Virus record (IMG/VR): IMGVR_UViG_2609459800_000001
Source of the DNA: a virus
Lineage: Duplodnaviria > Heunggongvirae > Uroviricota > Caudoviricetes
DNA: 64,000 bases
Strand: one strand, 5' to 3'
Shown here: piece after piece, positions 20,177 through 64,000 of the stretch
Layout: every line of letters begins with the position of its first letter
How positions within the stretch are numbered: the first letter of the stretch is position 1
The notes under the pieces: model-generated
What the model saw: the letters and a program-made list of their open reading frames with translations, nothing else
What the model was told of the DNA's origin: nothing
Database searches by the model: none
Translations under genes and position numbers: made by a program

Positions 20177-20178
20177 AC

Positions 20179-20430: not shown

Positions 20431-20437
20431 CGGCAAG

Positions 20438-28218: not shown

Positions 28219-28225
28219 TGGAAGA

Positions 28226-28250
28226 ATGCCCGGTTGATGCCGGGCATAAT
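28226..28250. terminator. bidirectional hairpin between convergent ant-like gene and c1
   Basis: ATGCCCGG-ttgat-GCCGGGCAT. Confidence 0.4.
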
Positions 28251-29102
28251 TTATTGCGCGCTTTCGGGGTTGTCGTTTACTGGCTGCCCCTTCTTGGTTT
28301 TACGGCTGCGCGTAACTGATGCGGCTGACTTAACCTTTTTCTCTTCGCGAGTGATGGCAATTTGTTTTTTTACATTTTCAATATCTGCCAGGCGATATAT
28401 TTTTGCTTGCGGCCAGCGGTCGCAGATGATCGGTTCTATGGAGTCATAAAGGCTAAATTTTGCTTTTTCGAATTCACCGTTGATGATAATTCCATCACGG
28501 AGAGTTTCATCGCAGATAAACACGCCACACAGTGGCACATGGTAACTAACTGATTTACCATCATTGTAGTTAGGGCTACTGGAAATGTAGTGGACGCGCA
28601 GCATTGTTTCGCTAAAGCCGTGTACGCGCATACGGAATTTTTCATCCTCCGGGTACTGCCTCATTAGCTCTTTTGTTGCTTCCAGGTTCTCTATGTATTT
28701 CGCACTGTGCTCATTGATCCCCGCGCTTTTTTGGATGCGAATGTCCTTATCAATCAGATGAATAATGCGGCCAGCGGTCATGTTGACGCTGTTCACAGCT
28801 TCTGTCTGATAAGTTGTAACCTTGCGCACACCGCGAAGGATGTTAGGCACTGGATATAAAATAGTCTTTGGGATATTGAGGTCTGGGTACTGTTCCAGTT
28901 CCCGCGCCATTAAAGTCCATTTATCAATTTCAGCCTGAATGCTGTCAGTTTCTTTGAACGGTAGAACGACAACCGGGCGTACAGGACGACCGTCGCTGGC
29001 TGTATCAACGTGTTGGGCGCGTGCAACAGCTTTTTTTAGAAAGAGATCCCTGAAGCTGACGAACTCCTGGTACAGTTGTTCGCCGTAGACATAATTTATC
29101 AT
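28251..29102 (-). CDS. c1: C1 repressor of lysis
   Basis: 283 aa; sequence matches P1 C1 as recalled (MINYVYGEQLYQEF...NDNPESAQ). Confidence 0.9.
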   Translation of the reverse strand: MINYVYGEQLYQEFVSFRDLFLKKAVARAQHVDTASDGRPVRPVVVLPFKETDSIQAEIDKWTLMARELEQYPDLNIPKTILYPVPNILRGVRKVTTYQTEAVNSVNMTAGRIIHLIDKDIRIQKSAGINEHSAKYIENLEATKELMRQYPEDEKFRMRVHGFSETMLRVHYISSSPNYNDGKSVSYHVPLCGVFICDETLRDGIIINGEFEKAKFSLYDSIEPIICDRWPQAKIYRLADIENVKKQIAITREEKKVKSAASVTRSRKTKKGQPVNDNPESAQ

Positions 29103-29195
29103 TGATCCTCCTCCAGAATTGACATGGTCAATAACGCCCGGCTGAGAAAACCGGTCATTACTGACCTATATTATAGAGGGATCAAACAAAAATAA

Positions 29196-29212
29196 TAGAT
29201 TTATTAGTGCAT
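29196..29212 (-). promoter_or_regulatory. C1 operator-like site upstream of c1
   Basis: AATGCACTAATAAATCT, 3 mismatches. Confidence 0.4.
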
Positions 29213-29422
29213 TTATTGTGAGTCTAACTGGTTAGTTGCCATGAGATATTCGATTGTGTCAGTGAGGTCATCCAGGTCGTCTTGGGTGATGCGGTACTCC
29301 TGATTGGATATCTTTGAGTAGTGTTCAGCAATGGCGCGGGCAGCGTCGGTTTCGGCAGGGTCTACAGATAAAGCGTTAGAGCAATGTCTAACGTCGTCGA
29401 TGGTTGGTTGAATGAAAGCCAT
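29213..29422 (-). CDS. coi: C1 inactivator
   Basis: 69-aa acidic ORF immediately upstream of c1 on same strand. Confidence 0.8.
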   Translation of the reverse strand: MAFIQPTIDDVRHCSNALSVDPAETDAARAIAEHYSKISNQEYRITQDDLDDLTDTIEYLMATNQLDSQ

Positions 29423-29660
29423 AATTATGCCTCACTGTATTGACAACACAGAGCCTGAAGCTCTGACCTACTGTTTCACCCATGATCCATGCTGGGGTAA
29501 TCTAACAACATTGCGCTGTGTGTAAGATGAGCAATGCATAGCTGTAATGCCGTTGTATAAGGTTTCCCTGTTTGCCCATTTCCTTCTGAGCCGCTCTACA
29601 ACGCTGAAGACACATTAAATAGTGAATCCAAAGTCGTATTACGTAACGGCGGCAAAACTA

Positions 29661-29677
29661 TAATTTATTAGAGCAAT
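29661..29677 (-). promoter_or_regulatory. C1 operator (Op99 cluster)
   Basis: ATTGCTCTAATAAATTA, 16/17. Confidence 0.65.
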
Positions 29678-30255: not shown

Positions 30256-31287
30256 ATGTCTAATTTACTGACCGTACACCAAAATTTGCCTGCATTACCG
30301 GTCGATGCAACGAGTGATGAGGTTCGCAAGAACCTGATGGACATGTTCAGGGATCGCCAGGCGTTTTCTGAGCATACCTGGAAAATGCTTCTGTCCGTTT
30401 GCCGGTCGTGGGCGGCATGGTGCAAGTTGAATAACCGGAAGTGGTTTCCCGCAGAACCTGAAGATGTTCGCGATTATCTTCTATATCTTCAGGCGCGCGG
30501 TCTGGCAGTGAAAACTATCCAGCAACATTTGGGCCAGCTAAATATGCTTCATCGTCGGTCCGGGCTGCCACGACCAAGTGACAGCAATGCTGTTTCACTG
30601 GTCATGCGACGGATCCGAAAAGAAAACGTTGATGCCGGTGAGCGTGCAAAACAGGCGCTGGCGTTCGAACGCACTGATTTCGACCAGGTTCGTTCACTCA
30701 TGGAAAATAGCGATCGCTGCCAGGATATACGTAATCTGGCATTTCTGGGGATTGCTTATAACACCCTGTTACGTATAGCCGAAATTTCTAGGATCAGAGT
30801 TAAAGATATCTCACGTACTGACGGTGGGAGAATGTTAATCCATATTGGCAGAACGAAAACGCTGGTTAGCACCGCTGGTGTAGAGAAGGCACTTAGTCTG
30901 GGGGTAACTAAACTGGTTGAGCGATGGATTTCTGTCTCTGGTGTGGCTGATGATCCGAATAACTTCTTGTTTTGCCGTGTCAGAAAAAATGGTGTTGCCG
31001 CGCCATCTGCCACCAGCCAGCTATCAACTCGCGCCCTGGAAGGGATTTTTGAAGCAACTCACCGATTGATTTACGGGGCTAAGGATGACTCTGGCCAGAG
31101 GTACCTGGCCTGGTCTGGACACAGTGCCCGTGTCGGAGCCGCGCGAGATATGGCCCGTGCCGGAGTTTCAATACCGGAGATCATGCAAGCTGGTGGCTGG
31201 ACCAACGTAAATATTGTCATGAACTATATCCGTAACCTGGATAGTGAAACAGGGGCAATGGTGCGCCTGCTGGAAGATGGCGATTAG
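30256..31287 (+). CDS. cre: Cre tyrosine recombinase
   Basis: 343 aa, essentially identical to P1 Cre as recalled; loxP 419 bp upstream. Confidence 0.97.
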   Translation: MSNLLTVHQNLPALPVDATSDEVRKNLMDMFRDRQAFSEHTWKMLLSVCRSWAAWCKLNNRKWFPAEPEDVRDYLLYLQARGLAVKTIQQHLGQLNMLHRRSGLPRPSDSNAVSLVMRRIRKENVDAGERAKQALAFERTDFDQVRSLMENSDRCQDIRNLAFLGIAYNTLLRIAEISRIRVKDISRTDGGRMLIHIGRTKTLVSTAGVEKALSLGVTKLVERWISVSGVADDPNNFLFCRVRKNGVAAPSATSQLSTRALEGIFEATHRLIYGAKDDSGQRYLAWSGHSARVGAARDMARAGVSIPEIMQAGGWTNVNIVMNYIRNLDSETGAMVRLLEDGD

Positions 31288-31304
31288 CCATTAACGCGTA
31301 AATG

Positions 31305-31321
31305 ATTGCTCTAATTCTTTG
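31305..31321 (+). promoter_or_regulatory. C1 operator between cre and downstream gene
   Basis: ATTGCTCTAATTCTTTG. Confidence 0.55.
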
Positions 31322-31337
31322 ATATTTATGGTGACAT

Positions 31338-31649
31338 ATGAGAAAGGATTTCAACATCGACGGAAAATATGTAGTGCTGTCTGTGAGCACTAATATTCAG
31401 TCGCCAGCCGTCATTGTCACTGTAAAGCTGAGCGATAGAATGCCTGATATTGACTCAATATCCGTTGCGTTCCCTGTCAGAAGTATGCGTAGTGCTGAAC
31501 ATTTCGTGATGAATGCCACCGAGGAAGAAGCACGGCGCGGTTTTGCTAAAGTAGTGTCTGACTTTGGCGAACTCTTGGATAAGGTTAACAATGTCCTTTC
31601 AATCAGTTCAGCAAGGTCCAAAGCGTTAACAGCTTCCATGATGAAATAA
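31338..31649 (+). CDS. cre-associated small protein (103 aa)
   Basis: ORF immediately downstream of cre. Confidence 0.5.
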   Translation: MRKDFNIDGKYVVLSVSTNIQSPAVIVTVKLSDRMPDIDSISVAFPVRSMRSAEHFVMNATEEEARRGFAKVVSDFGELLDKVNNVLSISSARSKALTASMMK

Positions 31650-31653
31650 AAAA

Positions 31654-31673
31654 AGCCTGGCAAGGAGCCAGGC
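31654..31673. terminator. hairpin flanked by A-run/T-run (bidirectional terminator)
   Basis: GCCTGGC-aagga-GCCAGGC. Confidence 0.45.
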
Positions 31674-31776
31674 TGCACTAAAGACCGGGTTTGTGTTCCG
31701 CATCCAATCAATCAGAAAGGAGTATAGCACATAGATACTAAAGTGAAAAAATGTGACTGAAGATAAACAATATAAC

Positions 31777-31800
31777 ATTGCTCTAATTGATTGTTATAAT
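31777..31800 (+). promoter_or_regulatory. C1 operator fused to a -10 TATAAT (ref-type promoter)
   Basis: ATTGCTCTAATTGATTG then TATAAT at 31795-31800. Confidence 0.55.
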
Positions 31801-31997
31801 TGAGCCGTGGCGTTAGTCAACTACGAAGACGTGGCCATTACCTACTTAACCAGTTCCGCCAGGGCAGCAGAGTAGGTTTCATCTCGGATGTACCATGCCT
31901 GCATGTTTTCCAGAGAAGCCCGCGAGGTTCCCGGACAGGACTCTGCCATTGCGATAGATTAAATGCAATAACCTAAAAGCGATAACGTGGTGGAAAA

Positions 31998-32635
31998 ATG
32001 TTCATCAGAGCTTATTTAAGGGCATCAACGGAAGATCAGTTTGCCGATCGGGCAAAAGAGATGCTGGGGCAGTTTGTTCAGGAGCGGGGACATAAAATAG
32101 CCAGTTACTACCGGGAGAACATAAGCGGTACAAAACTCGACCGCCCGGAACTGGGACGCTTACTGATGGACAGCCACCGCAATGATATTTTACTGGTCGA
32201 GCAAATTGACCGCCTGACCCGTCTGAGTAACAGTGACTGGATTACGCTGAAAAAGCAGATAGAACAACACGAACTGCGGATTGTCGCCTGGATGTATCCA
32301 CCTCATGGCAGGCGCTGTCAGATAAAGACCCTTCGCAGGCTGACCCAATCACCCGCGCCGTGATAACCGCCATCAATAACATGCTTATCGACCTGATGGC
32401 CGCGATGTCGCATAAGGACTGGCTGAGCCGTCGCCAACGGCAACAACAGGGAATTGAACGGGCTCATACGCTGGGTAAATACCGGGGATAACAGGCCGAT
32501 CAGGAACGGCATCAGAAAGTCCTGTACTACCGGCAGGTCAAGAAACTAAGTATCCATGAAACGGTAGATGCGACAGGGTACAGTCCTTCACAGATATGCC
32601 GCATTCAAGAGAGCCTGAATCGGAATAAAAAGTAG
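31998..32635 (+). pseudogene. serine recombinase (resolvase/invertase family) pseudogene with two frameshifts
   Basis: Catalytic N-terminus, middle and HTH C-terminus lie in three different frames. Confidence 0.7.
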
Positions 32636-32734
32636 CCCTGGCGTTAATGGATTACCTTTCCAGGCTAAGCTCATTGCTCCTGTCAGATACGCAGCCCTGC
32701 CTGTAATAATACAGACTGGGCAATGTGTTGCCAC

Positions 32735-33136
32735 TCAGGCTGACAACTGTCGGAGGATATCCGCTGTATTATAATGAGCCCGTTTTTCTATATATTTCCC
32801 GTCCTTCAGAGTGATCATAAATATCAGAGAAAAGCGCACTTTCCTGCCGCTGGCAGGATGCCCAAGGAATTCACGGGTCTGCACGCCTTCAAAGATAAGA
32901 TAGCAGGCGACTTTATCGTCTCTGGCAAAGATTTCGTGGATACGCATTGTAAATCCCGGAAAAGCATCCATATGGCCTTTTTCCTGTACGATAAACTGCT
33001 CACTGTTCAGCGGTGTATCCACCTGAGAATAGAATTTAAAATCCGGATGGCAGAGGTTTTTCACCTCATCATATTTATTTTCTTCAATCAGACGATAAAA
33101 CTTTTTAACCGTTTTGATATTTTCTTCAACAGACAT
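32735..33136 (-). CDS. NTF2-like / SnoaL-type ester-cyclase-like protein
   Basis: 133-aa ORF; pattern resembles SnoaL-like polyketide cyclase family. Confidence 0.55.
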   Translation of the reverse strand: MSVEENIKTVKKFYRLIEENKYDEVKNLCHPDFKFYSQVDTPLNSEQFIVQEKGHMDAFPGFTMRIHEIFARDDKVACYLIFEGVQTREFLGHPASGRKVRFSLIFMITLKDGKYIEKRAHYNTADILRQLSA

Positions 33137-33144
33137 ATTGCACC

Positions 33145-34134
33145 TCATTTTTCAGTTTCTTTACCTGCCGGAATATTGCCTGCCGGCGTTCCGTTAAATG
33201 TTTTTCGCCATTCACTGGGACTGACTCCCATCCGCTGCCGGAATATCTGCCGGAAAGTAATGGTGGACTGAAAGCCTGCCAGTTCGGCAACCCGCTCCAC
33301 TGCAATATCTGTACTTTCCAGCAGTTCCTGACTCCGCCGGAGACGCTCTGTGGTGATCCACTCCCAGACCGTCATTCCTGTGGCCGAATGAAAATGGCGT
33401 GTAAGCGTTCTTCGGCTCATGGAGGCTAAATGGGCCAGAGTGTCAATATCATGTGGTAATCCCAGATTTGCGGACAGGTATTCCAGCAGCTGGTTTATGC
33501 GGTTATCGGACGTACTTTTGGGAATAAGCAGTTGCCGGTACTGTGCCTGTCCGCCTTCCCGGTAAGGAGGAGCAACCATCCGGCGGGCTATTTGATTAGC
33601 CGTATATCTGCCCAGGCGTTGCCGGATCACATGGAGACAACAGTCCAGTGCTGCGGCTGTACCGGCTGAGGTGATAATCCGCTCGTCCTCAACATAAAGC
33701 ACGTTCACGTCCAGATGAACCGCCGGGAAAAGCATCTGGAAATCCCGTTCAGCCTCCCAGTGCGTGGCCGCCCGTTTACCATCCAGCAGACCGGTGTAAG
33801 CCAGAACAAAACTCCCCAGGCACAGGCCCACCACCTGAGCTCCATTTTTCCAGGCTGCAACCAGGGCACTGAGCAGAGTTTCAGAAGGCCTTTCATGGAT
33901 GTGTTTCCAGAAAGGAATAATAACGATATCGGCCTCTGCCAGTGCATCAAGCCCGTATTCTGCCCTCATCGCCGTACCTTCAGCAGACCAGATAAGCCCG
34001 GGCTCTTCCGCACATACCCGGCGGCTGAAGAGAGCCTTCCCTTCCAGTATCTCCCCGAACAGGATTAGTGGAACGGAGACATGAAATGTACTGAACCCTT
34101 CGGTGATCACTATAGCGACAGTGATGGTGGACAT
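33145..34134 (-). CDS. GlxA-family transcriptional regulator (DJ-1/PfpI domain + AraC-type HTH)
   Basis: N-terminal DJ-1-like domain with Cys nucleophile motif (VVGLCLGSF); C-terminal AraC HTH. Confidence 0.8.
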   Translation of the reverse strand: MSTITVAIVITEGFSTFHVSVPLILFGEILEGKALFSRRVCAEEPGLIWSAEGTAMRAEYGLDALAEADIVIIPFWKHIHERPSETLLSALVAAWKNGAQVVGLCLGSFVLAYTGLLDGKRAATHWEAERDFQMLFPAVHLDVNVLYVEDERIITSAGTAAALDCCLHVIRQRLGRYTANQIARRMVAPPYREGGQAQYRQLLIPKSTSDNRINQLLEYLSANLGLPHDIDTLAHLASMSRRTLTRHFHSATGMTVWEWITTERLRRSQELLESTDIAVERVAELAGFQSTITFRQIFRQRMGVSPSEWRKTFNGTPAGNIPAGKETEK

Positions 34135-37499: not shown

Positions 37500-37936
37500 G
37501 TTTTATCTCCAGCCTGTGCTAAGGCTTCAACTTCCAAATCGTAAGACTCAAACTCATAGTCCTGGTCGTCAACTTCTTCAGGCACTGGCAGTAAATGCCA
37601 GGCTGAGTATATCTGACCATTATCAAAACGCTCCTGGCTGTAGAGCGTCGCGGCTATGAGTGTTAGCGCCGGGCGGTCATAACGGTAAATTTTGCGAACG
37701 TCACGGTCAACGAGACGACCGAAATTACCATAACCGCGCTCCAGTAATAATTTTTTAATTTCCGGCCAGTATGGACCATAGCTGCGGTACAGGCGGGGAT
37801 TTTTCAGTAATCGCCCGCGTAGCCCTGACAGGAAGAAATCAACGTATTCGTCTTCTGTTTTTCCTAACAACGCTGTACGGAGTACCGCCTCAAGATATGT
37901 TTTATTCGGTTTTATTGTATCAGATAGTGTGACCAT
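37496..37936 (-). CDS. hypothetical protein at the P1 ulx position
   Basis: 146-aa ORF overlapping downstream start. Confidence 0.5.
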   Translation of the reverse strand: MVTLSDTIKPNKTYLEAVLRTALLGKTEDEYVDFFLSGLRGRLLKNPRLYRSYGPYWPEIKKLLLERGYGNFGRLVDRDVRKIYRYDRPALTLIAATLYSQERFDNGQIYSAWHLLPVPEEVDDQDYEFESYDLEVEALAQAGDKT

Positions 37937-37969
37937 ATTATGCGACGCCCGGCGAACCGGGCGCTCCTG

Positions 37970-39337
37970 TTATGCGTATTGTTGGATGACGGCCAGAACG
38001 TCCGACACGTTGTGTTTTGTCTCGATAATCCACCAGTTGCCCGGGAAATCGCTGTTCTTCGCCTTCGCTGGCACCCAGCGAGCGCCGAATTTTTCCTTGA
38101 TTGCGTCTTTAGCACGGAAAAGAACGCCTTTCATGCCGGACGCCTCCTGAAGCCCAAATACCTCGCCAGCGGCGAATTTTGGTGCGTACATCATCTTCAG
38201 GTCGGCGGTGGATACGCGATAATTCAGACCAAGAGACTGAGCTATGCTGGTGGCATCACCCTGTATTGATGATAACTCTTCTTGTTTCTCGTTTCTGGCG
38301 GCAATTTCTTCCTCCGTGATGTTGCCAAGGGCCAGGTTTATCCGATCAGCGTCGGCCTGTTTCTCTTCATCGGTGCGCCCGGCAAGAACCGTGTTAATTC
38401 TCTGCAATATCTCCACATGATTCTTGCGCATGCTGAGCAATTCCGGCGTAACATCGTTAAGATCCACCAGCCCAAGGATGGCAAGGTCGGAAAACATTGA
38501 TACCAGGTTGTAGGTCATGCGATAGCTGAGTTGGCTATAGGCTGATGGCAACTGCACCGCATCCATTTGATAGGCATCCATAAATTTAGAGCCGTCGTTT
38601 ACGACATCCGCAATTGCCGGTGTGATTTTCCCTGTGGTGGCGGCCTCCCTGATTGCTGTTACCCACGATTGAGTCAGCGCGGCGACTGCATGATTCAGAT
38701 TGGCTTTCCGTTCTGCTGCAATGCGCGCGCTTGCTGCGTCCATTGCCTGCTTGATCTCGTCTTTATTGCTGTAAATGCCAATGGGACCAAACTGTGTTGT
38801 GGTGATCTCATAATCTGACGCCCGGAACTCATTGGTACCGAAAATGGCATTGGTGACCTCAAGTTCAGAATCCCCGTTACGAGTAGCCCCCTGACTTGTT
38901 TTCTCCGGCATTTTTGCGATCGCATCCGCTATTTTCTCCTGAATTGCTTCAGGGGATAGCGTATCTCCGTATGACGCGATTACATCGCTATAATTGGATC
39001 CAAACAGTTCAGTCAGGAATACTTCTGCCAAACGGACCTGGCGGTTATTCCCTTCCGACATCATACCAAGCACCCATTTAGCAATTGACGACTTCAGCGC
39101 GCCGTCACGGCGATCCGGGTAAACCGCATGCTTCAGTGGGTCCGTATAGGTACCAACAAAATCAATGCTATAGCCTGACTCTGTAGTCTGAACGCCGTAT
39201 GAGTCAGTGATTTTGATCATGCCGCGCTGCTGGAAACGGTAGAAATCGTCACAGGAAATGATGTCGTTAATCCCGGCGATGGAGACGCCACCACTGATTT
39301 TCTGCATAACAGCATCTTCATCGGGAGTTACATCCAC
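37970..39337 (-). CDS. hypothetical protein (455 aa); possible C-terminal remnant of a darB-like gene
   Basis: GTG start; lies where P1 darB 3-prime end is expected. Confidence 0.4.
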   Translation of the reverse strand: MDVTPDEDAVMQKISGGVSIAGINDIISCDDFYRFQQRGMIKITDSYGVQTTESGYSIDFVGTYTDPLKHAVYPDRRDGALKSSIAKWVLGMMSEGNNRQVRLAEVFLTELFGSNYSDVIASYGDTLSPEAIQEKIADAIAKMPEKTSQGATRNGDSELEVTNAIFGTNEFRASDYEITTTQFGPIGIYSNKDEIKQAMDAASARIAAERKANLNHAVAALTQSWVTAIREAATTGKITPAIADVVNDGSKFMDAYQMDAVQLPSAYSQLSYRMTYNLVSMFSDLAILGLVDLNDVTPELLSMRKNHVEILQRINTVLAGRTDEEKQADADRINLALGNITEEEIAARNEKQEELSSIQGDATSIAQSLGLNYRVSTADLKMMYAPKFAAGEVFGLQEASGMKGVLFRAKDAIKEKFGARWVPAKAKNSDFPGNWWIIETKHNVSDVLAVIQQYA

Positions 39338-40119
39338 CTGTTATCCAGCGTCTTCACATCCCAGTTACCCGATTTGGTGCCTTTGAAGGTAAAGATGATC
39401 TCCACGTCTGCGCGCTGGCTGTCGAAGTCCAGCGACTTAATGCGAACGATATCACCGGCACAATCGTAGTATTGGCCTACACGCCATGAGCGATCGCCGA
39501 TAACAAGGAACTCACTCGCATGGTTAACCAGGTCAGGATCAACATCCAGAATGCCTTTATTTATTGCATCCTCCACCAGTGGGCGCAGGCGTTTGATATC
39601 CGTCGCGGCCTTCTGAGTACGGTTCAATAATTTCTCATAGCGGGAGATGGCTTGAGAGATATTAGCCTTGCGCTGAATGGCGCTTTTCAACGACGCGCGA
39701 TACTGTGCTAACAACATACGGTCTGTGTGATGGACACTCCCCCAGCGGGCCTTCCAGTCTGCGTTATCAGCTGCTTTGGCCATTACCGCCTGTTTGAATT
39801 TAGCTACCTCGGCGGTGGTCTTTTCAAATTCCGCTTTGCTTCGCTCTAATTCAGCGGTAAGTACCTCCACATCCTCACCAGCTGCGTGCTGCGCCTTGAT
39901 GTAGTTCTGAAGGTCGATAGTAGCCTGTTCTTTCTGGCGAGCGCGTTGCGCGGCTTTCGCCTTATCCATTTGAACCTGCATCATTGCCAGACGTTCACCG
40001 TCATCCTTCGCGGTATACATCTGCATTTCGATCATATCATTGGCGTCGGCGTTCTCCATTTCTGACTTATCTGAACGGAGGATATCGGAGATCCTGGGCT
40101 TCGTTTGGGAAACGTACAA
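39328..40119 (-). CDS. coiled-coil protein (263 aa) whose 5-prime end abuts inverted repeat L
   Basis: TTG start inside the repeat; first ATG gives ~243 aa. Confidence 0.4.
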   Translation of the reverse strand: MYVSQTKPRISDILRSDKSEMENADANDMIEMQMYTAKDDGERLAMMQVQMDKAKAAQRARQKEQATIDLQNYIKAQHAAGEDVEVLTAELERSKAEFEKTTAEVAKFKQAVMAKAADNADWKARWGSVHHTDRMLLAQYRASLKSAIQRKANISQAISRYEKLLNRTQKAATDIKRLRPLVEDAINKGILDVDPDLVNHASEFLVIGDRSWRVGQYYDCAGDIVRIKSLDFDSQRADVEIIFTFKGTKSGNWDVKTLDNRWM

Positions 40120-40331
40120 TATTGTACGGTTGCGCTATTGCGGTAGGGTGTACTCCAACGCTATACGGTCTTTGGCAGACCTTTAGGGAAATGAGATAAG
40201 CTAAATGCGATAAGAGAAAAGCAATAACTTAAAGGCAATAGCTGATTACGATAAATCAATCAGTTACTTATCAGTATCGATTAAAAAATGCTCCTAACGT
40301 ACAATAATTTCCGTTTCCCAAACCGACCCCT
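40093..40331. repeat. 239-bp inverted repeat, left copy (MITE-like)
   Basis: Near-identical inverted copy at 43748-43986; contains palindrome CGTACAATATTGTACG (40113-40128); own ends form ~26-bp imperfect TIR. Confidence 0.85.
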
Positions 40332-40341
40332 AATAGCCGGA

Positions 40342-40539
40342 CTACGGACGCGCAATAATTCGCCCCTGACTTTCCAGCAGTTGGTAAGCATGTCCGACGG
40401 TCATGAAGCTCATGCCGCTGCTGGCGACCTGTTCGCGCAGTGACGGCAGACGATCGCCGGGTCGCCAGACGCCAGAGGCGATCTGTTCGCAAAGTTGTTC
40501 AGCCAGACGCTGGTATTTTTTATTCTGGTTTCTCGTCGG
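40342..40539 (-). pseudogene. GntR-family regulator fragment (HTH domain only)
   Basis: KKYQRLAEQL...GDRLPSLREQ...MTVGHAYQLL HTH; no start codon; ends 11 bp from repeat. Confidence 0.55.
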
Positions 40540-40691
40540 TCAATGCAGGTGAGCCTCGCAGTGTATAACAGTGAATAAAATTCACAACGATTTGCAAACT
40601 GTTATGGTTAAATATGTCTGTTCTGTTTCTGCCCCTCATTGCCTCACACGCTTAGAATTGCGCTGAATCAATTTTTAATGCGGAGTCAGGC

Positions 40692-42092
40692 ATGTTTGGT
40701 CTTGATGCGTATCACCTGGCAAGGATCCAGTTCGCCTTTACAGTTTCATTTCACATTATCTTTCCGGCGATCACCATTGGGCTTGCCAGTTATCTGGCGG
40801 TGCTGGAAGGCCTTTGGCTAAAAAGCAAAAATCCGGTCTGGCGCTCGTTGTACCACTTCTGGTCAAAAATATTCGCCGTAAATTTCGGCATGGGCGTGGT
40901 TTCCGGTCTGGTGATGGCCTATCAGTTCGGCACCAACTGGAGCGGTTTTTCGGAATTCGCAGGCAGTATTACCGGGCCGTTGCTTACCTATGAGGTGCTG
41001 ACCGCTTTCTTCCTTGAAGCCGGATTCCTCGGGGTGATGCTGTTTGGCTGGAATAAAGTCGGTCCGGGTTTGCATTTCTTCTCAACCTGCATGGTGGCGC
41101 TTGGCACCCTCATTTCCACCTTCTGGATCCTGGCGTCTAACAGTTGGATGCAAACGCCGCAGGGGTTTGAGATCGTCAACGGCCAGGTTGTGCCCGTGGA
41201 CTGGTTCGCCGTTATCTTCAATCCTTCGTTCCCTTATCGGCTGCTGCATATGTCCGTCGCCGCATTTCTCAGTAGCGCGCTGTTTGTCGGCGCTTCGGCA
41301 GCCTGGCATCTGCTGCGCGGCAACGCAACGCCAGCCATTCGCACGATGTTTTCCATGGCGTTGTGGATGACGCTTATTGTCGCGCCGGTGCAGGCGTTAA
41401 TCGGCGATATGCATGGGCTGAACACCCTGAAACATCAGCCAGCCAAAATCGCCGCGATTGAAGGTCACTGGGAAAACCCGCCGGGTGAGCCCACGCCGCT
41501 GCTGCTGTTTGGCTGGCCGGATATGGAACAGGAACGCACCCGCTATGGACTGGCGATCCCGGCGCTGGGAAGCCTGATCCTGACGCACAGTCTGGATAAA
41601 CAGGTTCCGGCGCTAAAAGAATTCGCCAAAGAGGATCGCCCTCACTCGACGATCGTGTTCTGGTCGTTTCGCATCATGGCCGGCCTGGGCATGTTAATGA
41701 TCCTGCTAGGGCTCTGTGCGCTCTGGCTGCGCTACAGGCAGCGCCTCTACACCTCGCGCCCGTTCCTGCGCTTTGCGCTATGGATGGGACCCTCGGGGCT
41801 CATCGCCATTCTCGCGGGCTGGGTGACCACTGAGGTCGGACGCCAGCCGTGGGTGGTGTACGGTTTACAGCGTACTGCCGACGCGGTGTCGGCCCACGGC
41901 GATTTACATATGAGCATTTCGTTGCTCGCTTTCTTTGTTGTCTACAGCTCAGTCTTTGGCGTCGGCTACAGCTATATGATTCGCCTGATCCGCAAAGGCC
42001 CGCTGGAAGATGATTCCGCGCCGCCGCCGGGCACACCCGCCAGGCCGCTTTCCGCCGCCGTCCTCGATTCTCAACATAAGGCACATCGCTAA
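40692..42092 (+). CDS. cytochrome bd-type quinol oxidase subunit I (CydA/AppC/CioA family, short Q-loop)
   Basis: 466 aa; alignable with E. coli CydA N-terminal region and GRQPW motif. Confidence 0.9.
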   Translation: MFGLDAYHLARIQFAFTVSFHIIFPAITIGLASYLAVLEGLWLKSKNPVWRSLYHFWSKIFAVNFGMGVVSGLVMAYQFGTNWSGFSEFAGSITGPLLTYEVLTAFFLEAGFLGVMLFGWNKVGPGLHFFSTCMVALGTLISTFWILASNSWMQTPQGFEIVNGQVVPVDWFAVIFNPSFPYRLLHMSVAAFLSSALFVGASAAWHLLRGNATPAIRTMFSMALWMTLIVAPVQALIGDMHGLNTLKHQPAKIAAIEGHWENPPGEPTPLLLFGWPDMEQERTRYGLAIPALGSLILTHSLDKQVPALKEFAKEDRPHSTIVFWSFRIMAGLGMLMILLGLCALWLRYRQRLYTSRPFLRFALWMGPSGLIAILAGWVTTEVGRQPWVVYGLQRTADAVSAHGDLHMSISLLAFFVVYSSVFGVGYSYMIRLIRKGPLEDDSAPPPGTPARPLSAAVLDSQHKAHR

Positions 42093-43102
42093 TGGGTATT
42101 GATTTATCGGTTATCTGGTTTGTGATCATCGTTTTCGCCACGCTAATGTATATCGTGATGGATGGATTCGATTTGGGTATTGGCATTCTGTTTCCTGTCA
42201 CACGAAACGCAGAGGATCGTGATGTGATGGTCAATAGCGTCGCGCCGGTGTGGGACGGTAATGAAACCTGGCTGGTGCTGGGCGGCGCGGGGCTGTTTGG
42301 GGCTTTCCCGATGGCCTATGCGGTTATTATCGATGCGCTGACCATTCCGTTGACGCTGATGCTGATCGGACTGATTTTTCGCGGCGTGGCCTTCGAGTTT
42401 CGCTTCAAGGCCACGCCAGCCCACCGCCCATTTTGGGACCATGCTTTTCTCGGCGGGTCGATTCTGGCTACCTTCGCCCAAGGGATCGTGGTTGGCGCAG
42501 TGATCAACGGTTTCCCGGTGACCGGTCGCAGCTACAGCGGCGGGCCGTTCGACTGGTTAACCCCCTTCACTCTGTTCTGTGGCGTCGGACTGGTCGTTGC
42601 CTATGCGCTCTTAGGCGCAACCTGGCTGGTGATGAAAAGCGAAAATCCGCTTCAGGATAAAATGCGCAGCGTCGCGAAAAAACTGCTGCTGGCCCTGCTG
42701 TTGTCAATTGCGATAATCAGCCTCTGGACACCGTTAGCGCATCCGGCGATCGCCGACCGTTGGTTTACGCTTCCCAACCTGGGCTATCTGCTGCCGGTTC
42801 CGGTGCTGGTGATCGCGTTCAGCGTCTGGTTATGGCGCACACTGGGTCGTCCGGAAAACCACACGTTTCCGTTTGTGCTGACGCTCGGGCTAATCTTCCT
42901 TGGTTTCAGCGGCCTGGGCATCAGTATCTGGCCGCACATTATTCCGCCTTCGGTTACCCTCTGGCAGGCAGCCGCCCCCGCCCAGAGTCAGGGGTTTATG
43001 CTGGTCGGTGCGCTGCTCATCATTCCGGTGATTTTGGTGTACACCTTCTGGAGTTACTATGTGTTTCGCGGCAAAGTGCAACATGGCGAGGGGTATCACT
43101 GA
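42092..43102 (+). CDS. cytochrome bd-type quinol oxidase subunit II
   Basis: 336-aa polytopic protein, start overlaps subunit I stop. Confidence 0.9.
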   Translation: MGIDLSVIWFVIIVFATLMYIVMDGFDLGIGILFPVTRNAEDRDVMVNSVAPVWDGNETWLVLGGAGLFGAFPMAYAVIIDALTIPLTLMLIGLIFRGVAFEFRFKATPAHRPFWDHAFLGGSILATFAQGIVVGAVINGFPVTGRSYSGGPFDWLTPFTLFCGVGLVVAYALLGATWLVMKSENPLQDKMRSVAKKLLLALLLSIAIISLWTPLAHPAIADRWFTLPNLGYLLPVPVLVIAFSVWLWRTLGRPENHTFPFVLTLGLIFLGFSGLGISIWPHIIPPSVTLWQAAAPAQSQGFMLVGALLIIPVILVYTFWSYYVFRGKVQHGEGYH

Positions 43103-43230
43103 TGCAACATTCTCTCTGGAAACGCCTGATGTGGCTGGTCATCCTTTGGGGCGGCAGCGTGTTGGCGCTGGCGGCGGTGGGCATGTTTTTTCGCCTGCTC
43201 ATGACTGCGGCGGGGTTTAAAGCGCATTAA
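43102..43230 (+). CDS. small membrane protein (42 aa), CydX-like position
   Basis: ATGA overlap with subunit II stop; single TM helix. Confidence 0.45.
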   Translation: MQHSLWKRLMWLVILWGGSVLALAAVGMFFRLLMTAAGFKAH

Positions 43231-43334
43231 GCGGACACCTCGCCGGATGTCGGCTTTGGGCCAGGCGTTAACCGGCGGAAATAAATACCAACACAAAGGC
43301 CCGGTAAACGCCACCGGGCTGATGTCGCAAAGGA

Positions 43335-43745
43335 TTAAGGTTTACGCTTCGGCAGCGTTTTCATCAGATCTTCCGGACTGACGGAACCCACCACGCTGCC
43401 CGGCAGCGGCATTTTAAGAATGTGATCTTCAATCTTGCCGATAACGTGCATTTCACACGGGCGACAGCCAAATTTCAGCGTCAGCACCTCATCACCGTTG
43501 ACCAGTTGCATTGGCGTCGCTTTCCAGCTTTTGATGTTACCTTTCGCCTGTTTCGGGCAAAGATTAAAGGCAAAACGCAGGCAATGCTTGGTGATCATCA
43601 CAGGCACATCGCCCTTTTCTTGATGCGCTTCATACGCCGCGTCGATCAACTGTACGCCATAACAATGGTAGAACTCACGCGCCTTCTGGTTATAGACGTT
43701 TGCCAGAAAACTCAGATGCGTCTGCGGGTAGACCGGCGCGGGATC
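43335..43745 (-). pseudogene. C-terminal fragment of an unidentified host-type gene (5-prime end replaced by repeat)
   Basis: Frame stays open upstream into inverted repeat R with no start codon. Confidence 0.4.
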
Positions 43746-58291: not shown

Positions 58292-58418
58292 AACTATTTC
58301 CTTAATAGTGAATTAAATATCATTGGGAAACGGTATGTACTTTGTGATTTCCACACATACTGGTTTTTGTTAATTAAAATCCGCAGCTTGCTATAAATAA
58401 CGATAGTGAGCAGAAAAT

Positions 58419-58979
58419 ATGCTAATAGGCTATGTACGCGTATCAACAAATGAACAAAACACTGCTTTACAACGAAATGCCCTTGAAAGCGCAGGATGTG
58501 AGCTAATTTTTGAGGATAAGGCGAGCGGCAAAAAGGCTGAACGCCCTGGGCTAAGAAAGGTTTTGCGTATGCTTTCCAGAGGTGACACCCTGGTCGTATG
58601 GAAGTTAGATCGTCTTGGGCGCAGCATGCGTCACTTGGTTGTGCTGGTGGAGGAGCTGCGTGACAGAGGAATTAACTTCCGGAGTCTCACTGACTCCATC
58701 GACACCAGTACACCAATGGGGCGCTTTTTCTTTCACGTAATGGGGGCGCTGGCAGAAATGGAACGTGAGCTTATCGTTGAACGTACACGCGCTGGACTTG
58801 ATGCAGCTCGCGCAGAAGGTCGAATAGGAGGCCGTCGGCCTAAATACCAAGAAGAAACATGGCAGCAAATGCGTCGATTGCTGGAGAATGGCATCCCCCG
58901 TAAGCAGGTTGCAATCATCTATGATGTTGCTGTTTCCACGCTTTATAAAAAGTTTCCTGCGTCATCATTTCAATCCTAA
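58419..58979 (+). CDS. cin: Cin/Gin/Hin-family serine DNA invertase
   Basis: MLIGYVRVSTNEQ catalytic Ser; VWKLDRLGRS; C-terminal HTH; next to invertible tail-fibre segment. Confidence 0.9.
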   Translation: MLIGYVRVSTNEQNTALQRNALESAGCELIFEDKASGKKAERPGLRKVLRMLSRGDTLVVWKLDRLGRSMRHLVVLVEELRDRGINFRSLTDSIDTSTPMGRFFFHVMGALAEMERELIVERTRAGLDAARAEGRIGGRRPKYQEETWQQMRRLLENGIPRKQVAIIYDVAVSTLYKKFPASSFQS

Positions 58980-58996
58980 ACCTTGGTTTAAGAGAA
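58971..58996. other. cix-like inversion crossover site (left)
   Basis: CAATCCTAAACC-TT-GGTTTAAGAGAA, hix/gix-like half-sites; overlaps cin stop. Confidence 0.6.
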
Positions 58997-59170
58997 CTCG
59001 GTACCAGCGGTGAAAAGATCCCCCTGTTGAGCACGGCTAACACATGGAGTGCGCGCCAGACTTTCAACGGCGGGATCACCGGGGCGCTGACAGGGAACGC
59101 CGACACCGCGACGAAATTAAAAACAGCCATAAACATTAATGGCGTCAGGTTCGATGGTTCGGCTGACATT
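58984..59170. repeat. inverted repeat (left) of invertible segment
   Basis: Matches reverse complement of 63347-63532 with few mismatches. Confidence 0.8.
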
Positions 59171-60880
59171 ACGTTGACTCCTAAAGATCTGGACGTTTAC
59201 AGCAAAAGCGAAATAGACAATAAAAAAGGGATGCGAAAATACACTTTTTCAGCGCCTGCAAATGCAGTAAGCGGTAAGTGGTATCCTATAGTCTTTCGCC
59301 GATCTGGAGGCAGTACCGATGAATTAGCCTCACGAGTTGTGATAACTACTTATTCCTCAGCTGGCGGATACGCCATGAATAATTGTGAATTTAATGGGTT
59401 TGTTATGCCTGGCGGTTGGTCTGATCGCGGTTCATATGCGGCTGGTTTTTTCTCAATATATTCTACTGCTGAGCGAGCTATACACTCGATTATTTCAAGT
59501 GTGAAAGATGACGATTTGTGTAGTGTATTTTACGTTGAAGCCAGAGCATTTCCTATCAAGATATTTGCTGAGGAGGGCTTGAACGTAATTGTTCCAACTA
59601 CTGACTATACCGTTGGTCAAGCCACCTATAAGTGGGGGGCCACAGATCCAGTAGCAGAAAGTACAAATACTCAAACCATTCTGGATTTTAAAAATGGACG
59701 TGGTTATTACTGCTCACATCAGTTTGTTTCAAGCCTTTCAGGAAATGCAGCAACAGCAACGAAATTAGCAAGTTCAATAAACATAGGTGGTGTATCCTTT
59801 GATGGTTCAGCCGATATAGATTTGCCTGGTGTGAATACAAAAGGTAATCAAGACACTACCGGTAATGCAGCGACAGCGACCAAGTTGCAGACAGCATGTA
59901 CTATCAACGGCGTCTCGTTTGATGGTTCTAAAGATATTGAACTTAACCCACGGTCTATAGGCACGATCAACTCCACAACAATGTCTTTTAGTGGTGGTGC
60001 TGGATGGTTCAAGCTGGCAACTGTAACAATGCCACAAGCCAGTTCCGTGGTTTACATAAACCTGATTGGTGGCGCAGGGTATAACGTTGGCTCCCCGCAG
60101 CAAGCAGGCATCTCTGAGCTGGTTCTGCGTGCAGGAAATGGAAATCCAAAAGGTATTACTGGTGCATTATGGCGACGGACCTCGGTTGGATTTACTAATT
60201 TTGCATGGGTGAATACATCCGGTGATACCTATGACATTTATGTAGAAATAGGTAATTACGCCACAGGTGTTAATATCCAGTGGGATTATACAAAGGATGC
60301 AACTGTACAAATTCATACATCACCAACTTATACAGCGAATAAACCAACAGGCCTGACAGATGGAACTGTATATGTAATTTACAGTTCGCACATTAAACCG
60401 ACTGCTGCTGAGGTTGGGGCATTGTCATTATCTGGCGGTCAATTGAATGGTGCATTGGGTATCGGAACATCCAGTGCTCTTGGCGGTAACTCGATTGTTT
60501 TGGGTGATAATGACACGGGCTTTAAACAAAATGGCGACGGTAATCTGGACGTTTATGCTAATAACGTTCATGTTATGCGCTTTGTCTCCGGCAGCATTCA
60601 AAGTAATAAAACCATAAATATTACAGGGCGTGTTAACCCCTCGGATTACGGTAACTTTGATTCTCGTTATGTAAGAGACATGCGACTTGGTGGAGCATCT
60701 ACATATAAACCAGCAAATAACACCTCGACATGGACGCATCAGGCACCATCAGGCTGCGTTTATACTGGCATTATAGTCCAGGATACCGGCTCGAATTCTG
60801 CCGATAATATTGGAGGTGTATATTACAGGCCGGTTCAGAAACAGATTAATGGAACATGGTATAACGTGGCACAGGTTTAA
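59027..60880 (+). CDS. alternative tail-fibre variable part (Sv-prime), silent in this orientation
   Basis: 617-aa ORF; GNAATATKL...INGVSFDGS fibre repeats; 5-prime end inside inverted repeat. Confidence 0.75.
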
Positions 60881-60884
60881 ATTT

Positions 60885-61412
60885 ATGCAGCATTTGATCA
60901 ATATAACAGCGGGTAATCCAAAAACAGTTGAGCAATACCAGCTGACGAAACATTTTGATGTCATCTGGTTTTTTACAGAAGACGGTAAAAACTGGTATGA
61001 GGAACAAAAGAACTTCCAGGATGACACGATAAAATTAGCGTATGACAAAGATAACATCATCCGCTATGTGGAAAAGGATGTAACAGCTATCAGACCGGAT
61101 GGATTAAGTGTTGTTGAAGTGCCGGATATTACTGCTAACCGACGTGCCGACATTTCTGGTAACTGGATGTTTAAGGATGGCGCAGTTATTAAACGTATTT
61201 ATACGGCAGAGGAATTACAGCAGCAGGTAGAAAATCAGAAAGCCAGACTTCTTGCTGATGCTGAATCAGTCATTCAACTACTAGAGCGTGCAGTAAGGCT
61301 GAATATGGCAACGGATGAGGACCACAGCCGACTGGAAGCATGGGAACGCTACAGCGTTCTTGTAAGCCGCGTGGATACGGCAAAGCCAGAATGGCCACAA
61401 AAACCTGAGTAA
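60885..61412 (+). CDS. tail-fibre assembly protein (U-prime)
   Basis: 175 aa; paralog of minus-strand gene 61440-61973. Confidence 0.8.
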
Positions 61413-61416
61413 AAAT

Positions 61417-61438
61417 AAGGCCCGATAACGGGCCTTTT
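61417..61438. terminator. bidirectional terminator between convergent fibre-assembly genes
   Basis: AAGGCCCG-ataa-CGGGCCTTTT. Confidence 0.6.
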
Positions 61439-61439
61439 C

Positions 61440-61973
61440 TCATTCTGGTTGTTCGGGAAACGTTACTGGCAGGATGGAGGTATCTGTAGATTCTACTTTC
61501 TGCGCATATAGCATCCACGCGGTTAATTTCTGTTTATTCTCATCGGAAATGATGCCCAGCCGTAGCTGTGAGTCCCACAGTTGGGTTTTATCCCTGACAA
61601 GTTGCAATAGGCTTTGCTTTTCATTTTCAGCTTGTTGCCTCTGTTCTTCCTCGGTATAAGTTCGCTTTATCACTACGCCATCTTTGAACATCCATTTACC
61701 AGAAATGTCAGCACGGCGATTTGCAGTAATGTCAGCAACCTCAACCACACTTAAACCTTCTGGATTTATTGTAGATACGTCTTTATTTATAGCCACAATA
61801 ACTCCATCTGATGTGTAAGCAATTTTTATAGTGTCATCCTGGAAGTTCTTTTGTTCCTCATACCAGTTTTTACCGTCTTCAGAATACAACCAGACAACAC
61901 CAAATTGTCGCGTCAATTCATATTGTTCAACAGTTTTTGGATTACCTGATCTGATGTTTTTTAAATGCTGCAT
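61440..61973 (-). CDS. tail-fibre assembly protein (U), expressed orientation
   Basis: 177 aa directly after S stop. Confidence 0.85.
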
Positions 61974-61975
61974 AA

Positions 61976-64000
61976 TTAAATACTTCCCGCGTTATACCAT
62001 GTACCATTGATACAATACTGCACCGGCCTTGCCTGAGTTGTATCAATAAGTTCGTCCTTATTTGAGTTAATTGAGGCAGTAACAACATAACCAGATTTAT
62101 CGTTCCATCCAGGACCATTCCATGTTTGCACAGACGATTTTGTACCTAATCGAATACCTGTAATAAATCGTGAATTACATTCTGCTTTGGTATATGCCCC
62201 AACATCTCCCGCAGATGGTTTACGTGTTGTAGTATAAAATTCCGACCAGTCGGCTTCAAAACCATAACCGTCACGCGCAGAACGATAATAAATACCGCCG
62301 TTCTTATAATTCACGCGGAACTGAACAGCCGGACAACTACCAGCTCCCATATAAAAATGGAGAATCAACGTAGATGCTCCACCAATATTAGCGTTATAAA
62401 CCCCGCTAATCGAGTTCCATCCAACAGCTTTGTCATTTCCAACTGTGCTTCCTGTCTGCCCTAAAGCAAATGCAGGTTGCTGGTTTTTTGTGCTGTAGTC
62501 GCGCCGCCAGCCTGGGGCGTAATCTGCACCATGGTTTATATAAGTAAATTGCGCATTAGTGGTGCCACCTCCGGTGGAAGTGCTTGGTGTTGTTACACGG
62601 ATGGTCATGGCACCTTTATTACCCATAACCTCAATAACGCAACCTGCAAGATGAATAGTTCCACAGCCAGTATCGGTTATAATTTTATTATTGCCGTACG
62701 ACCATGAACATTTGCACATCCAGTATGGGTGATTGAATGCCCCTTGAGAATCCAGCCATTCAATCAATTGTGCCGTTGTCCAGTTCCCTGCACCTGTACT
62801 AATAGAACTGTGAAAAGCGCGACATGCACCAATATTTTTAGTGAAGGTATCTTTTCCAGGAATATCCGCGCCATTCTGGTTTTTCTGCAATGATCCAGCG
62901 GCTAGTTCTACGGTTTGCTCAAGATTTAAATTTTCAGCCGTTAGCTCAATATTTTTAGAACCATCAAACGAAACACCGTTAATAGTGCGCGCCGTCTGCA
63001 ATCTGGTCGCCGTAGCAGCATTGCCGGAGGTATCCTGATCCCCTTTGGCATTGACGCCGGGAATTGAATCTTTTGACGTATAGACCTGCGCCCATTCAGA
63101 CCAGTTGGCAGAATCAGTATCCCGCCGCGAACGGATATGTACGGGCGCATGGGCACCGCTCGTGCCACTCCAGCCAATGAATAACTCACCTTCGCCAGCA
63201 GCGGTGGCACCTTTAAGGTGAAGCACATTGCCATAGGGGGAAGGGTAGCCATTGTTGTATGCCTCATACAGCTGAATCCCAGATGTTCCCTGTGCATTCG
63301 CCTCCAAGGCCGTTACGCGACCGCGCGATACCAGAGTATTGATATTAATGTCACCAGAACCATCGAACCTGACGCCATTAATGTTTATGGCTGTTTTCAA
63401 TTTCGTCGCGGTGTCGGCGTTCCCTGTCAGTGCCCCGGTGATCCCGCCGTTGAAAGTCTGGCGCGCACTCCATGTGTTAGCCGTGCTCAACAGGGGGATC
63501 TTTTCACCGCTGGTACCGAGTTCTCTTAAACCAAGGTATTGGATAACGGCCAGTGTGCTTGTTTTAGCCAGAATATCGCGACCGACTGACGTTAAATCAG
63601 TCTGAGCTACCGTATCCTTACCAGTGAAATAAGGCAGTTTGTTTGCACCAGTCGCAAGGGCAGCGAGAGCGGTTAAAGTTGCATCCAGAGGCTGTTTGCC
63701 TGCCAGCGCATTTGTCATTGTTGTCGCAAAGTTCGGGTCATTGCCAAGTGCTGCGGCAAGCTCATTCAGGGTATCAAGAGCTTCTGGTGATGAACCAACC
63801 AATGCGGATATGGCAGCTCTTACATAAGCGGTCGTAGCAATCTGCGTGTTATTCGTACCCTGTGCAGCGGTAGGCGCAGTAGGGACACCCGTTAATGCAG
63901 GGCTTGCCAAAGGCGCTTTGAGAGCCAAGGCATTGTTGATAGTTGTGCTGTAATTCGGGTCGTTATTGATCGCAGCAGCTATTTCTTTAAGCGTATCCAG
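61976..64000 (-). CDS. tail-fibre protein S (constant + variable parts), 5-prime partial; continues past window end
   Basis: Open frame to window edge; tandem LDTL.E.AAA.NNDPN and GNAATATKL repeats; crosses cix site. Confidence 0.85.
63347..63532. repeat. inverted repeat (right) of invertible segment
   Basis: Reverse complement of 58984-59170. Confidence 0.8.
63521..63546. other. cix-like inversion crossover site (right)
   Basis: TTCTCTTAAACC-AA-GGTATTGGATAA. Confidence 0.6.

Follow-up and report, generated by a model that had tools for sequence, protein, structure and literature searches.

Architecture of the cin region

The window analysed here, a stretch of 64,000 nucleotides, is 100% identical to the Escherichia albertii plasmid NZ_CP030784.2, a P1-like phage-plasmid. 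Towards its right-hand end lies cin, followed by a segment of 4.55 kb (58971-63546; 4550 bp from crossover to crossover) between two 26-bp cix sites. The segment contains two convergent gene sets, each comprising a tail-fibre variable part and an assembly chaperone (Table 1). The initial annotation had described a 4.5-kb segment after cin with two such sets, and its positions for both sites are exact; both chaperones match Caudo_TAP. The fusion of the minus-strand set to the constant part of S is also borne out, as the S frame crosses cixR and leaves the window, and S is a 3141-nt CDS in the source record. The full S coding sequence, R and the late promoter LPs lie directly past the window in the source plasmid, in which the LPs region, upstream of R-Sc and outside the segment, is 100% identical to that of P1. 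In automatic annotation the silent half appears as a 'hypothetical protein', which hides the switch.

Table 1. Features of the cin region and the invertible segment (positions in the 64,000-nucleotide window)
Feature	Position	Strand	Remarks
Upstream region of cin with predicted sigma-70 promoters P2cin and P1cin	58297-58418	+	Promoter positions transferred from P1 annotation
cin, serine DNA invertase, 186 aa	58419-58979	+	Stop codon within cixL
Putative recombinational (Fis-dependent) enhancer	58437-58508		5' part of cin; annotated enhancer of P1 is cin nt 19-90
cixL crossover site, 26 bp	58971-58996		Identical to P1 and P7 cixL; centre TT 58983-58984
Left inverted-repeat arm	58973-59171		Codes for the initial ~62 aa shared by the two variable parts
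Silent variable part (long Sv), 631 aa	58985-60880	+	Own start codon absent; predicted to be expressed only after inversion
Block replacing P1 Sv sequence, 1.65 kb	59172-60825	+	No P1, P7, D6 or RCS47 DNA match except a 119-nt motif
Insert module, ~185 aa	about 59177-59735	+	Within the 1.65-kb block
Inner remnant of P1-type repeat	59825-59943		Partner 62943-63061, 78%; encodes fibre motif
Peduovirus-like distal part	from about 59956	+	Within the 1.65-kb block
U-type tail-fibre assembly chaperone, silent set	60885-61412	+	Caudo_TAP 6.8e-34; 77% to P1 U
GC-rich hairpin between both stop codons	61417-61436		Candidate bidirectional terminator
U'-type chaperone	61440-61973	-	Caudo_TAP 6.5e-36; 83.6% to P1 U'
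Sv'-type variable part, presently fused to Sc	61976-63532	-	93.8% to P1 Sv' over 518 aa
Right inverted-repeat arm	63346-63544
cixR crossover site, 26 bp	63521-63546		Identical to P1 and P7 cixR; centre AA 63533-63534
Sc constant part, 3' end of tail-fibre gene S	63535-64000	-	Exits window; 93% to P1 Sc

Invertase, putative enhancer and crossover sites

The product of cin has the features of a small serine recombinase: an N-terminal resolvase domain (Pfam Resolvase, E 5.7e-51), a C-terminal HTH domain (HTH_7, E 2.6e-18) and the catalytic serine, whose motif YVRVSTNEQ is intact in the translation. Identity amounts to 98.9% with P1 Cin and 98.4% with P7 Cin, and the protein matches the structure of Mu Gin (3uj3) with an E-value of 2.9e-88. 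In NCBIfam, Cin has matches below the cutoff only, and the chaperones have none. The lydC-cin intergenic region is 100% identical to that of P1; P2cin and P1cin were not called by a generic promoter scan. The putative enhancer shares 70 of 72 positions with its P1 counterpart, and at both differing positions it carries the P7 sequence.

The sites flanking the segment had been labelled hix/gix-like. They are recombinase crossover sites, but the label is too loose, since they equal P1 cixL and cixR base for base. A search with cixL that allowed three mismatches returned one match against 0.00 expected, and a search with the shared cix core returned exactly cixL and cixR against 0.10 expected. 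The two sites are inverted relative to each other, agree in their central dinucleotides and enclose the segment.

Inverted repeats and central hairpin

The inverted repeat overlapping the cix sites measures 199 nt at 97% complementarity, or 188 nt counted from the crossover dinucleotide, close to the earlier estimate of ~185 bp. It falls far below the ~0.6 kb quoted for P1, for which we measured 636 nt; the two lengths are thus not equal, and the continuous ~0.6-kb repeat, a feature of P1 sensu stricto, is absent here. Identity with the beginning of the P1 repeat is 95-97% in the left arm, and the 119-nt inner remnant matches either arm of the P1 repeat at 85.7%. The repeat is short because the U-side set has been replaced beyond codon ~64 by foreign fibre modules. 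Among the five elements measured, it is P1 with its continuous 636 nt that is the outlier: P7 and RCS47 have an outer repeat of 198 nt and an inner one of 129 nt (199 and 119 nt here), and D6 has 198 and 366 nt. Because the repeats of P7 and RCS47 are also 198 nt, a ~0.6-kb repeat does not define the family and a short one does not in itself mark a new variant. As a separate observation, the ~198-nt repeat boundary recurs in P7, RCS47, D6 and the E. albertii element. Elsewhere in the window are two icd/antirepressor modules, between which we found no inverted repeat at the DNA level.

The shared hairpin noted in the initial annotation is present, ending at 61436 rather than at 61438. It is called terminator-like on both strands, with predicted folding energies of -16.2 and -18.9 kcal/mol (z -3.9 and -5.2), and the T-tract on the plus strand is interrupted (TTTTCTCATTCT). 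The hairpin also occurs in P1, P7, D6 and RCS47, with an invariant stem and a variable loop.

Expressed and silent fibre sets

The initial annotation had proposed a variant fibre cassette, which holds for the silent set, a divergent mosaic; the set presently joined to Sc is an ordinary P1 Sv'/U' pair. Residues 181-518 of Sv' match the structure of Mu S' (8ju3) with an E-value of 1.1e-181. For P1, TRF did not report the annotated b1/b2 repeats of Sc, although the 222-nt repeat in the source plasmid was found.

The silent variable part, long Sv, shares with P1 and P7 Sv or Sv' only residues 1-64, a 46-residue motif and the last ~80 residues. Its relation to Mu S (5yvq_A) is distant and confined to the last ~85 residues (E 1.5e-12), while its chaperone matches the Mu U structure (5yvq_B) with an E-value of 4.7e-86. 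Within the replaced block, the insert module is 87-89% identical to residues 61-248 of 911-residue fibres on ~110-kb contigs, and the distal half of long Sv is 82-83% identical to fibres of Yersinia P2-like phages. The insert gave nothing meaningful in Pfam (E<=1) or in a PDB sequence search (E<=10), and no Pfam family was found for the 617-residue silent open reading frame. An AlphaFold2 model of the 195-residue insert region, based on 22 sequences that were all at least 85% identical, was mostly beta and unreliable (mean pLDDT 50, pTM 0.59).

Inversion in silico creates an open, in-frame Sc-long Sv fusion, and the present Sc-Sv' frame is likewise uninterrupted. The segment thus holds two alternative 3' ends, each with a chaperone and both in frame with the constant 5' part outside. 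Sc-long Sv fusions are common in databases as 1085-residue proteins with 98-100% identity on 94-99-kb contigs, and the same fusion is a 3480-nt CDS in NZ_CP074369.1. The mosaic fibre is widespread, with about 30 P1-like plasmids from E. coli, E. albertii and Salmonella carrying it in PLSDB. P1-like phage-plasmids are recognised to be hypervariable in the region cin-Sv'-U'-U-S (PMC9603915). In the literature we found C-segment variability treated in general terms only, and found no description of long Sv or of the P7 repeat lengths.

Comparison with related switches

The region follows the gene order of the P1 C-segment (AF234172 / NC_005856), namely lydC, cin, cixL, segment, cixR, Sc, R and LPs, and shares with it the cix sites, the central hairpin, Cin, the sequence of the putative enhancer, Sv'/U' and U, at the identities given above and in Table 1. 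Apart from repeat length, the two differ in crossover distance (4256 bp in P1) and in the variable part partnered with U, which in P1 is a 533-residue Sv unrelated to the 631-residue protein over 1.65 kb. In the P1 reference record it is Sv that is joined to Sc, whereas the E. albertii window, with Sv' in that place, represents a C(-)-like state. P7 (AF503408) and RCS47 (FO818745) share identical cix sites, the architecture and the hairpin. P7 differs in its cin-side variable part, which comprises 447 residues and lacks the insert module, and in its more diverged repeats (87%); in RCS47, cin is a pseudogene. The G-segment of Mu (Gin/gix) likewise has a homologous invertase (3uj3), homologous chaperones (5yvq_B) and S' tip (8ju3), and alternative 3' ends of S. 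Its repeats span only ~34 bp, and gin is located on the opposite side relative to S.

Evidence for inversion

Among near-identical plasmids (>=99%) the segment is found either way round, in about 20 versus 12 records. Counted by junction, 19 plasmid records display the cin-adjacent state in full and one more displays it up to the point where the record is cut; the Sc-adjacent state is seen in eight records as a single piece and in four as two pieces. These are different plasmids, each assembly giving one consensus orientation, and six of the cin-adjacent records go back to pooled pig samples of a single study, so that the events counted are not all independent. In NZ_CP074369.1 the same segment is present at 99.9% identity and flipped.

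We conclude that the segment is very probably a functional P1-type C-segment, a Cin/cix switch with two alternative tail-fibre tips, and that its carrier is a P1-like plasmid-prophage of E. albertii. A frozen relic, which would have kept its P1-derived architecture but lost the ability to invert and would carry the silent set as dead cargo, is very unlikely. Relatives do show such decay: RCS47 has its cin annotated as a pseudogene in two parts, and in several P1-like plasmids cin is truncated or the C-segment is gone (PMC6906374). In the E. albertii element, however, both cix sites, the cin gene, its promoter region and the putative enhancer sequence are intact and differ hardly at all from P1, the silent 631-residue frame and its chaperone are open, and both orientations occur in the plasmids just described.

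The junction predicted from a crossover at the cix centres is found with 801/801 identity in two plasmids. In the flipped relative, the four repeat alleles attached to long Sv moved along with it, while the flanks kept the outer half-sites; this locates the crossover at -5 to +102 relative to the cix centre. This polymorphism test of a cix against a homologous crossover is only partly informative, the nearest informative position being +102. In the other arm, two of the four informative positions deviate from the simple prediction, which indicates a degree of polymorphism or gene conversion on top of the inversion.

The same repeats bear on whether flipping proceeds mainly through host RecA, by homologous recombination between them rather than by Cin at cix. 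Homologous recombination could act on repeats of 199 nt with 97% identity, and the alleles at +102 and +135 in one arm of the flipped relative, off the cix-crossover prediction, point to exchange or conversion between arms. Yet one reciprocal exchange within the repeat fails to yield both arms as they are observed, the Sc-side junction of the flipped plasmids is the exact cix-crossover product, and a dedicated invertase is present with conserved sites and a conserved putative enhancer; inversion in P1 is cited as Cin-dependent (Iida et al., 1982, via PMC6906374). We regard the RecA route as highly improbable.

In the P1-related plasmid p15B, the Min system reassorts 3' segments of tail-fibre genes at several crossover sites, by means of an invertase related to Cin, and Min-type multiple-inversion regions are known from P1-like plasmids (PMC5786510, PMC6906374). 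We nevertheless reject a multi-site shufflon of this kind, with several fibre segments, as practically negligible in probability. It requires more than two crossover sites and the E. albertii element has exactly two, no third site at >=17/24 half-site matches being found above shuffled sequence in the whole 64-kb window. Moreover, the inner 119-nt inverted repeat is conserved fibre-motif coding sequence, not cix, and the segment has no more than two variable parts, each with one chaperone.

Proposed mechanism and implications

In the Cin/cix switch that we favour, Cin would pair the two inverted cix sites, aided by the enhancer inside cin, and strand exchange at the central dinucleotide would flip the 4.55-kb segment. 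We infer that Cin is active and Fis-dependent. Only the cix sites are needed by Cin, and the length of the repeat is therefore irrelevant to it. LPs-R-Sc, the late operon, reads leftward into the segment and would be joined in frame to either 3' end of S, each followed by its own matching chaperone. Transcription would probably end at the central hairpin, so that the antisense copy of the other set would stay untranscribed. The sequenced orientation would yield a P1 S'-type fibre and the inverted one the longer mosaic fibre, and a lysogen population would give rise to two types of virion with differing receptor specificity. In P1, where the cassette is inverted by cin, the LPS outer core is bound by S and O-antigen by S' (PMC13172314). 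The mechanism itself is textbook and conceptually nothing new; the fibre variant is the unstudied part.

We speculate, tentatively and with some doubt, that the silent 631-residue part forms a functionally new receptor-binding fibre, and that the ~198-nt repeat boundary is a preferred joint at which unrelated phage-plasmid lineages swap fibre modules. The fibre may have been assembled from a P2-like distal half and a ~185-residue insert without a Pfam or PDB relative, which has 87-89% identity to side fibres of ~110-kb siphovirus-tailed phage-plasmids. A different host range of the silent fibre may reasonably be inferred. If this reading is true, the mosaic cassette would confer a host range outside that of P1 S or S'. 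In practice its value is modest: the fibre is a candidate for extending the host range of P1-based transduction or delivery. The cassette is also a clear case of fibre modules exchanged among P1-like elements, P2-like phages and ~110-kb phage-plasmids.

The Cin/cix switch and its two fibre sets

The Cin protein encoded in the window is 98.9% identical to P1 Cin and matches the structure of Mu Gin (3uj3, E 2.9e-88). As in P1, cin terminates within the left crossover site, and scanning the full window for half-sites revealed no third cix site. The lydC-cin intergenic region, which holds the predicted cin promoters of P1, is 100% identical to P1, and the putative enhancer agrees with the one annotated in P1 at 70 of 72 positions, with both differences equal to the P7 sequence. 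Outside the window, the source plasmid has the late promoter LPs, upstream of R-Sc, with the same sequence as in P1.

Coordinates of features in the window
Feature	Position	Strand	Remarks
Type I restriction-modification genes	14682-20642	-	hsdR, hsdS, hsdM
isrK	26623-26701		Rfam
C4 antisense RNA	26746-26833		Rfam
First icd-like/KilAC-antirepressor module	27447-28777	+	
C1 repressor	28810-29661		
Cre-like integrase	30816-31847		
Second icd-like/KilAC-antirepressor module	32452-33782	-	
Fimbrial cargo genes	37836-43426	-	PapB/FocB-like regulator, fimbrial subunit, PefC/AfrB usher, chaperone, F18 FedE-like protein, DsbA-family gene
cin	58419-58979	+	Pfam Resolvase and HTH_7
Putative enhancer	58437-58508		P1 annotation: cin nt 19-90
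26-bp crossover sites	58971-58996 and 63521-63546		Base-for-base P1 cixL and cixR
199-nt inverted repeat	58973-59171 / 63346-63544		97% complementary; cix sites at outer ends
Central hairpin	61417-61436		
222-nt tandem repeat in Sc	63840-64000		2.2 copies, 92% matches; extends beyond the window (source plasmid record L001, 8541-9022)

Between the cix sites are two convergent sets, each comprising a fibre variable part and a Caudo_TAP chaperone, separated by a 27-nt gap that includes a hairpin. The hairpin is predicted to be terminator-like on both strands, with a stability far above that of shuffled sequence (z -3.9 and -5.2). Its loop is variable, but the stem is unchanged across P1, P7, D6 and RCS47, and the hairpin is therefore a feature of the family rather than peculiar to this element.

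The minus-strand set, now fused to the constant part Sc, is the Sv'/U' pair of P1 (Sv' 93.8% identity over 518 aa, U' 83.6%), and the solved structure of Mu S' (8ju3, E 1.1e-181) matches the tip of its variable part. The window has Sv' joined to Sc where the P1 reference record has Sv; the state sequenced here corresponds to P1 C(-), and the expressed fibre is S'-type. In P1, S binds outer-core sugars of LPS and S' binds O-antigen, and host range differs between the two (PMC13172314). In the sequenced orientation, the plus-strand set is the silent one. Its chaperone is U-type (77% identity to P1 U; match to Mu U, 5yvq_B, E 4.7e-86).

Evidence for inversion

In-silico inversion of 58983-63534 yields an uninterrupted reading frame joining Sc to the silent 631-aa variable part (long Sv). 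This flipped state exists in plasmid NZ_CP074369.1 of E. coli ZYB62 (99.9% identity), where the fusion is annotated as a 3480-nt tail protein. Among PLSDB records, the cin-adjacent (silent) long-Sv junction occurs in 19 over the full query and in one cut by the record end, six of these cin-adjacent records coming from one study and hence being non-independent; the Sc-adjacent (expressed) junction occurs in eight single-piece and four two-piece records. Two plasmids contain, with 801 of 801 positions identical, the junction that a crossover at the cix centre would create. In a large protein search, long Sv (98-100% identity) forms the C-terminal portion of tail-fibre proteins of 1085 aa encoded on 94-99 kb contigs from E. 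coli and Salmonella.

The repeat arms have four informative differences, at +102, +135, +177 and +179. Alleles linked to long Sv moved along with it in the flipped relative and the outer half-sites remained with the flanks; the crossover therefore lies between -5 and +102 relative to the cix centre. Two positions in the other arm deviate from the simple prediction and therefore reflect superimposed polymorphism or conversion.

An IS3-family transposase is present inside the cin/C-segment/Sc region of a 99.8% relative (NZ_CP122864.1, 80518-87777). In RCS47, cin is annotated as a two-part pseudogene (L006 1528-2068). Judged from this annotation, the RCS47 C-segment would be naturally locked and, if so, helpful as a negative control when inversion is assayed.

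Length of the repeats and of the fibre

The P1 repeat measures 636 nt, with the first ~210 codons common to both variable parts; here the outer repeat spans only 199 nt because the U-side variable part is replaced from codon ~64 onward, and an inner 119-nt remnant persists at 78%. The short repeat is not unprecedented, as P7 and RCS47 have repeats of 198 and 129 nt and D6 of 198 and 366 nt. The recurrent ~198-nt boundary falls directly past the first copy of the fibre motif GNA.TATKL..ING..FDGS, and may mark a favoured point for exchanging modules. Since Din-family invertases such as Cin act on crossover sites, here cix, repeat length should be immaterial to Cin; Mu inversion works with ~34-bp repeats.

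The Sc tandem repeat is also present in L002. Sc-long Sv fusions measure 1085 aa versus ~1159 aa (NZ_CP074369.1), a gap of 74 aa that equals one 222-nt unit, and the relatives H32 and H33 are longer than the query by ~222 bp. These differences suggest that the copy number varies, altering the length of the fibre shaft.

The silent long fibre is a mosaic

The similarity of long Sv to P1 or P7 is limited to the N-terminal 64 aa, a fibre motif of 46 aa and the C-terminal ~80 aa. In DNA comparisons, 59172-60825 of the window matches nothing in P1, P7, D6 or RCS47 except a 119-nt motif (59825-59943), and no phage record covers 80% of long Sv.

Between two fibre-motif copies lies an insert (residues ~65-250). 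Sequence searches of Pfam and PDB gave no match for it, its PHROG matches are solely fibre or unknown-function groups, and its predicted structure is unreliable (mean pLDDT 50). Fibres of 911 aa encoded on ~110-kb contigs (L008/L009, 6001-8736) share the insert at 87-89% identity (their residues 61-248), and their genes adjoin those for a 1575-aa GpJ-like tip protein, ParA, DnaB and a TacA/acetyltransferase toxin-antitoxin pair. These contigs probably represent a second phage-plasmid lineage swapping fibre modules with P1-like elements; that they are SSU5-like phage-plasmids is a guess. The insert is present too in phage Cyrano (108 kb) and the 9g-like siphovirus HdSG1. From residue ~317 to 631, long Sv is 82-83% identical to P2-like Yersinia phage fibres, and its final ~70-85 aa are similar to Mu S (5yvq_A, E 1.5e-12) and to the short tail fibre (9cuy, E 4.4e-19) of phage phiTE (PMC11972413).

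The host element

Over its final 5.7 kb, the window is 100% identical to plasmid unnamed1 (100,347 bp; NZ_CP030784.2) of Escherichia albertii 2012EL-1823B. The remaining window is annotated with the P1 hallmarks C1 repressor, Cre-like integrase, phd/doc, late-promoter activator, terminases, DarA-region genes and holins, which mark the element, judged by gene content, as a P1-like phage-plasmid. ARAGORN found no tRNA genes in the 64-kb window.

Replicon typing (PLSDB, MOB-suite) assigns the source plasmid to IncHI1B and the flipped relative to IncY, the usual P1 replicon type; the discrepancy may have arisen from an exchange of replicons or be an artefact of typing. The place of a variable defence locus in P1-like elements is taken by a type I restriction-modification system. 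Two icd-like/antirepressor modules in opposite orientation flank the C1 repressor and Cre-like integrase, and only the first has a C4 antisense RNA beside it. No inverted repeat of at least 60 nt joins them at the DNA level, and they are therefore diverged paralogues or of separate origin. The backbone also carries a chaperone-usher fimbrial operon as cargo, possibly a trait for virulence or colonisation that the phage-plasmid transports.

Discussion

Every defining feature of a P1-type Cin/cix switch that can be tested in sequence is present. The only P1-specific feature missing is the 0.6-kb repeat, which P7 likewise lacks. Eight hypervariable regions have been described in a set of 54 P1-like phage-plasmids, cin-Sv'-U'-U-S being one of them (PMC9603915); it has also been described as a region of difference (PMC6906374). 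The C-segment is therefore ordinary and apparently functional, and its alternative long fibre is widespread yet uncharacterised. By homology with P1, a lysogen population would release virions with either fibre.
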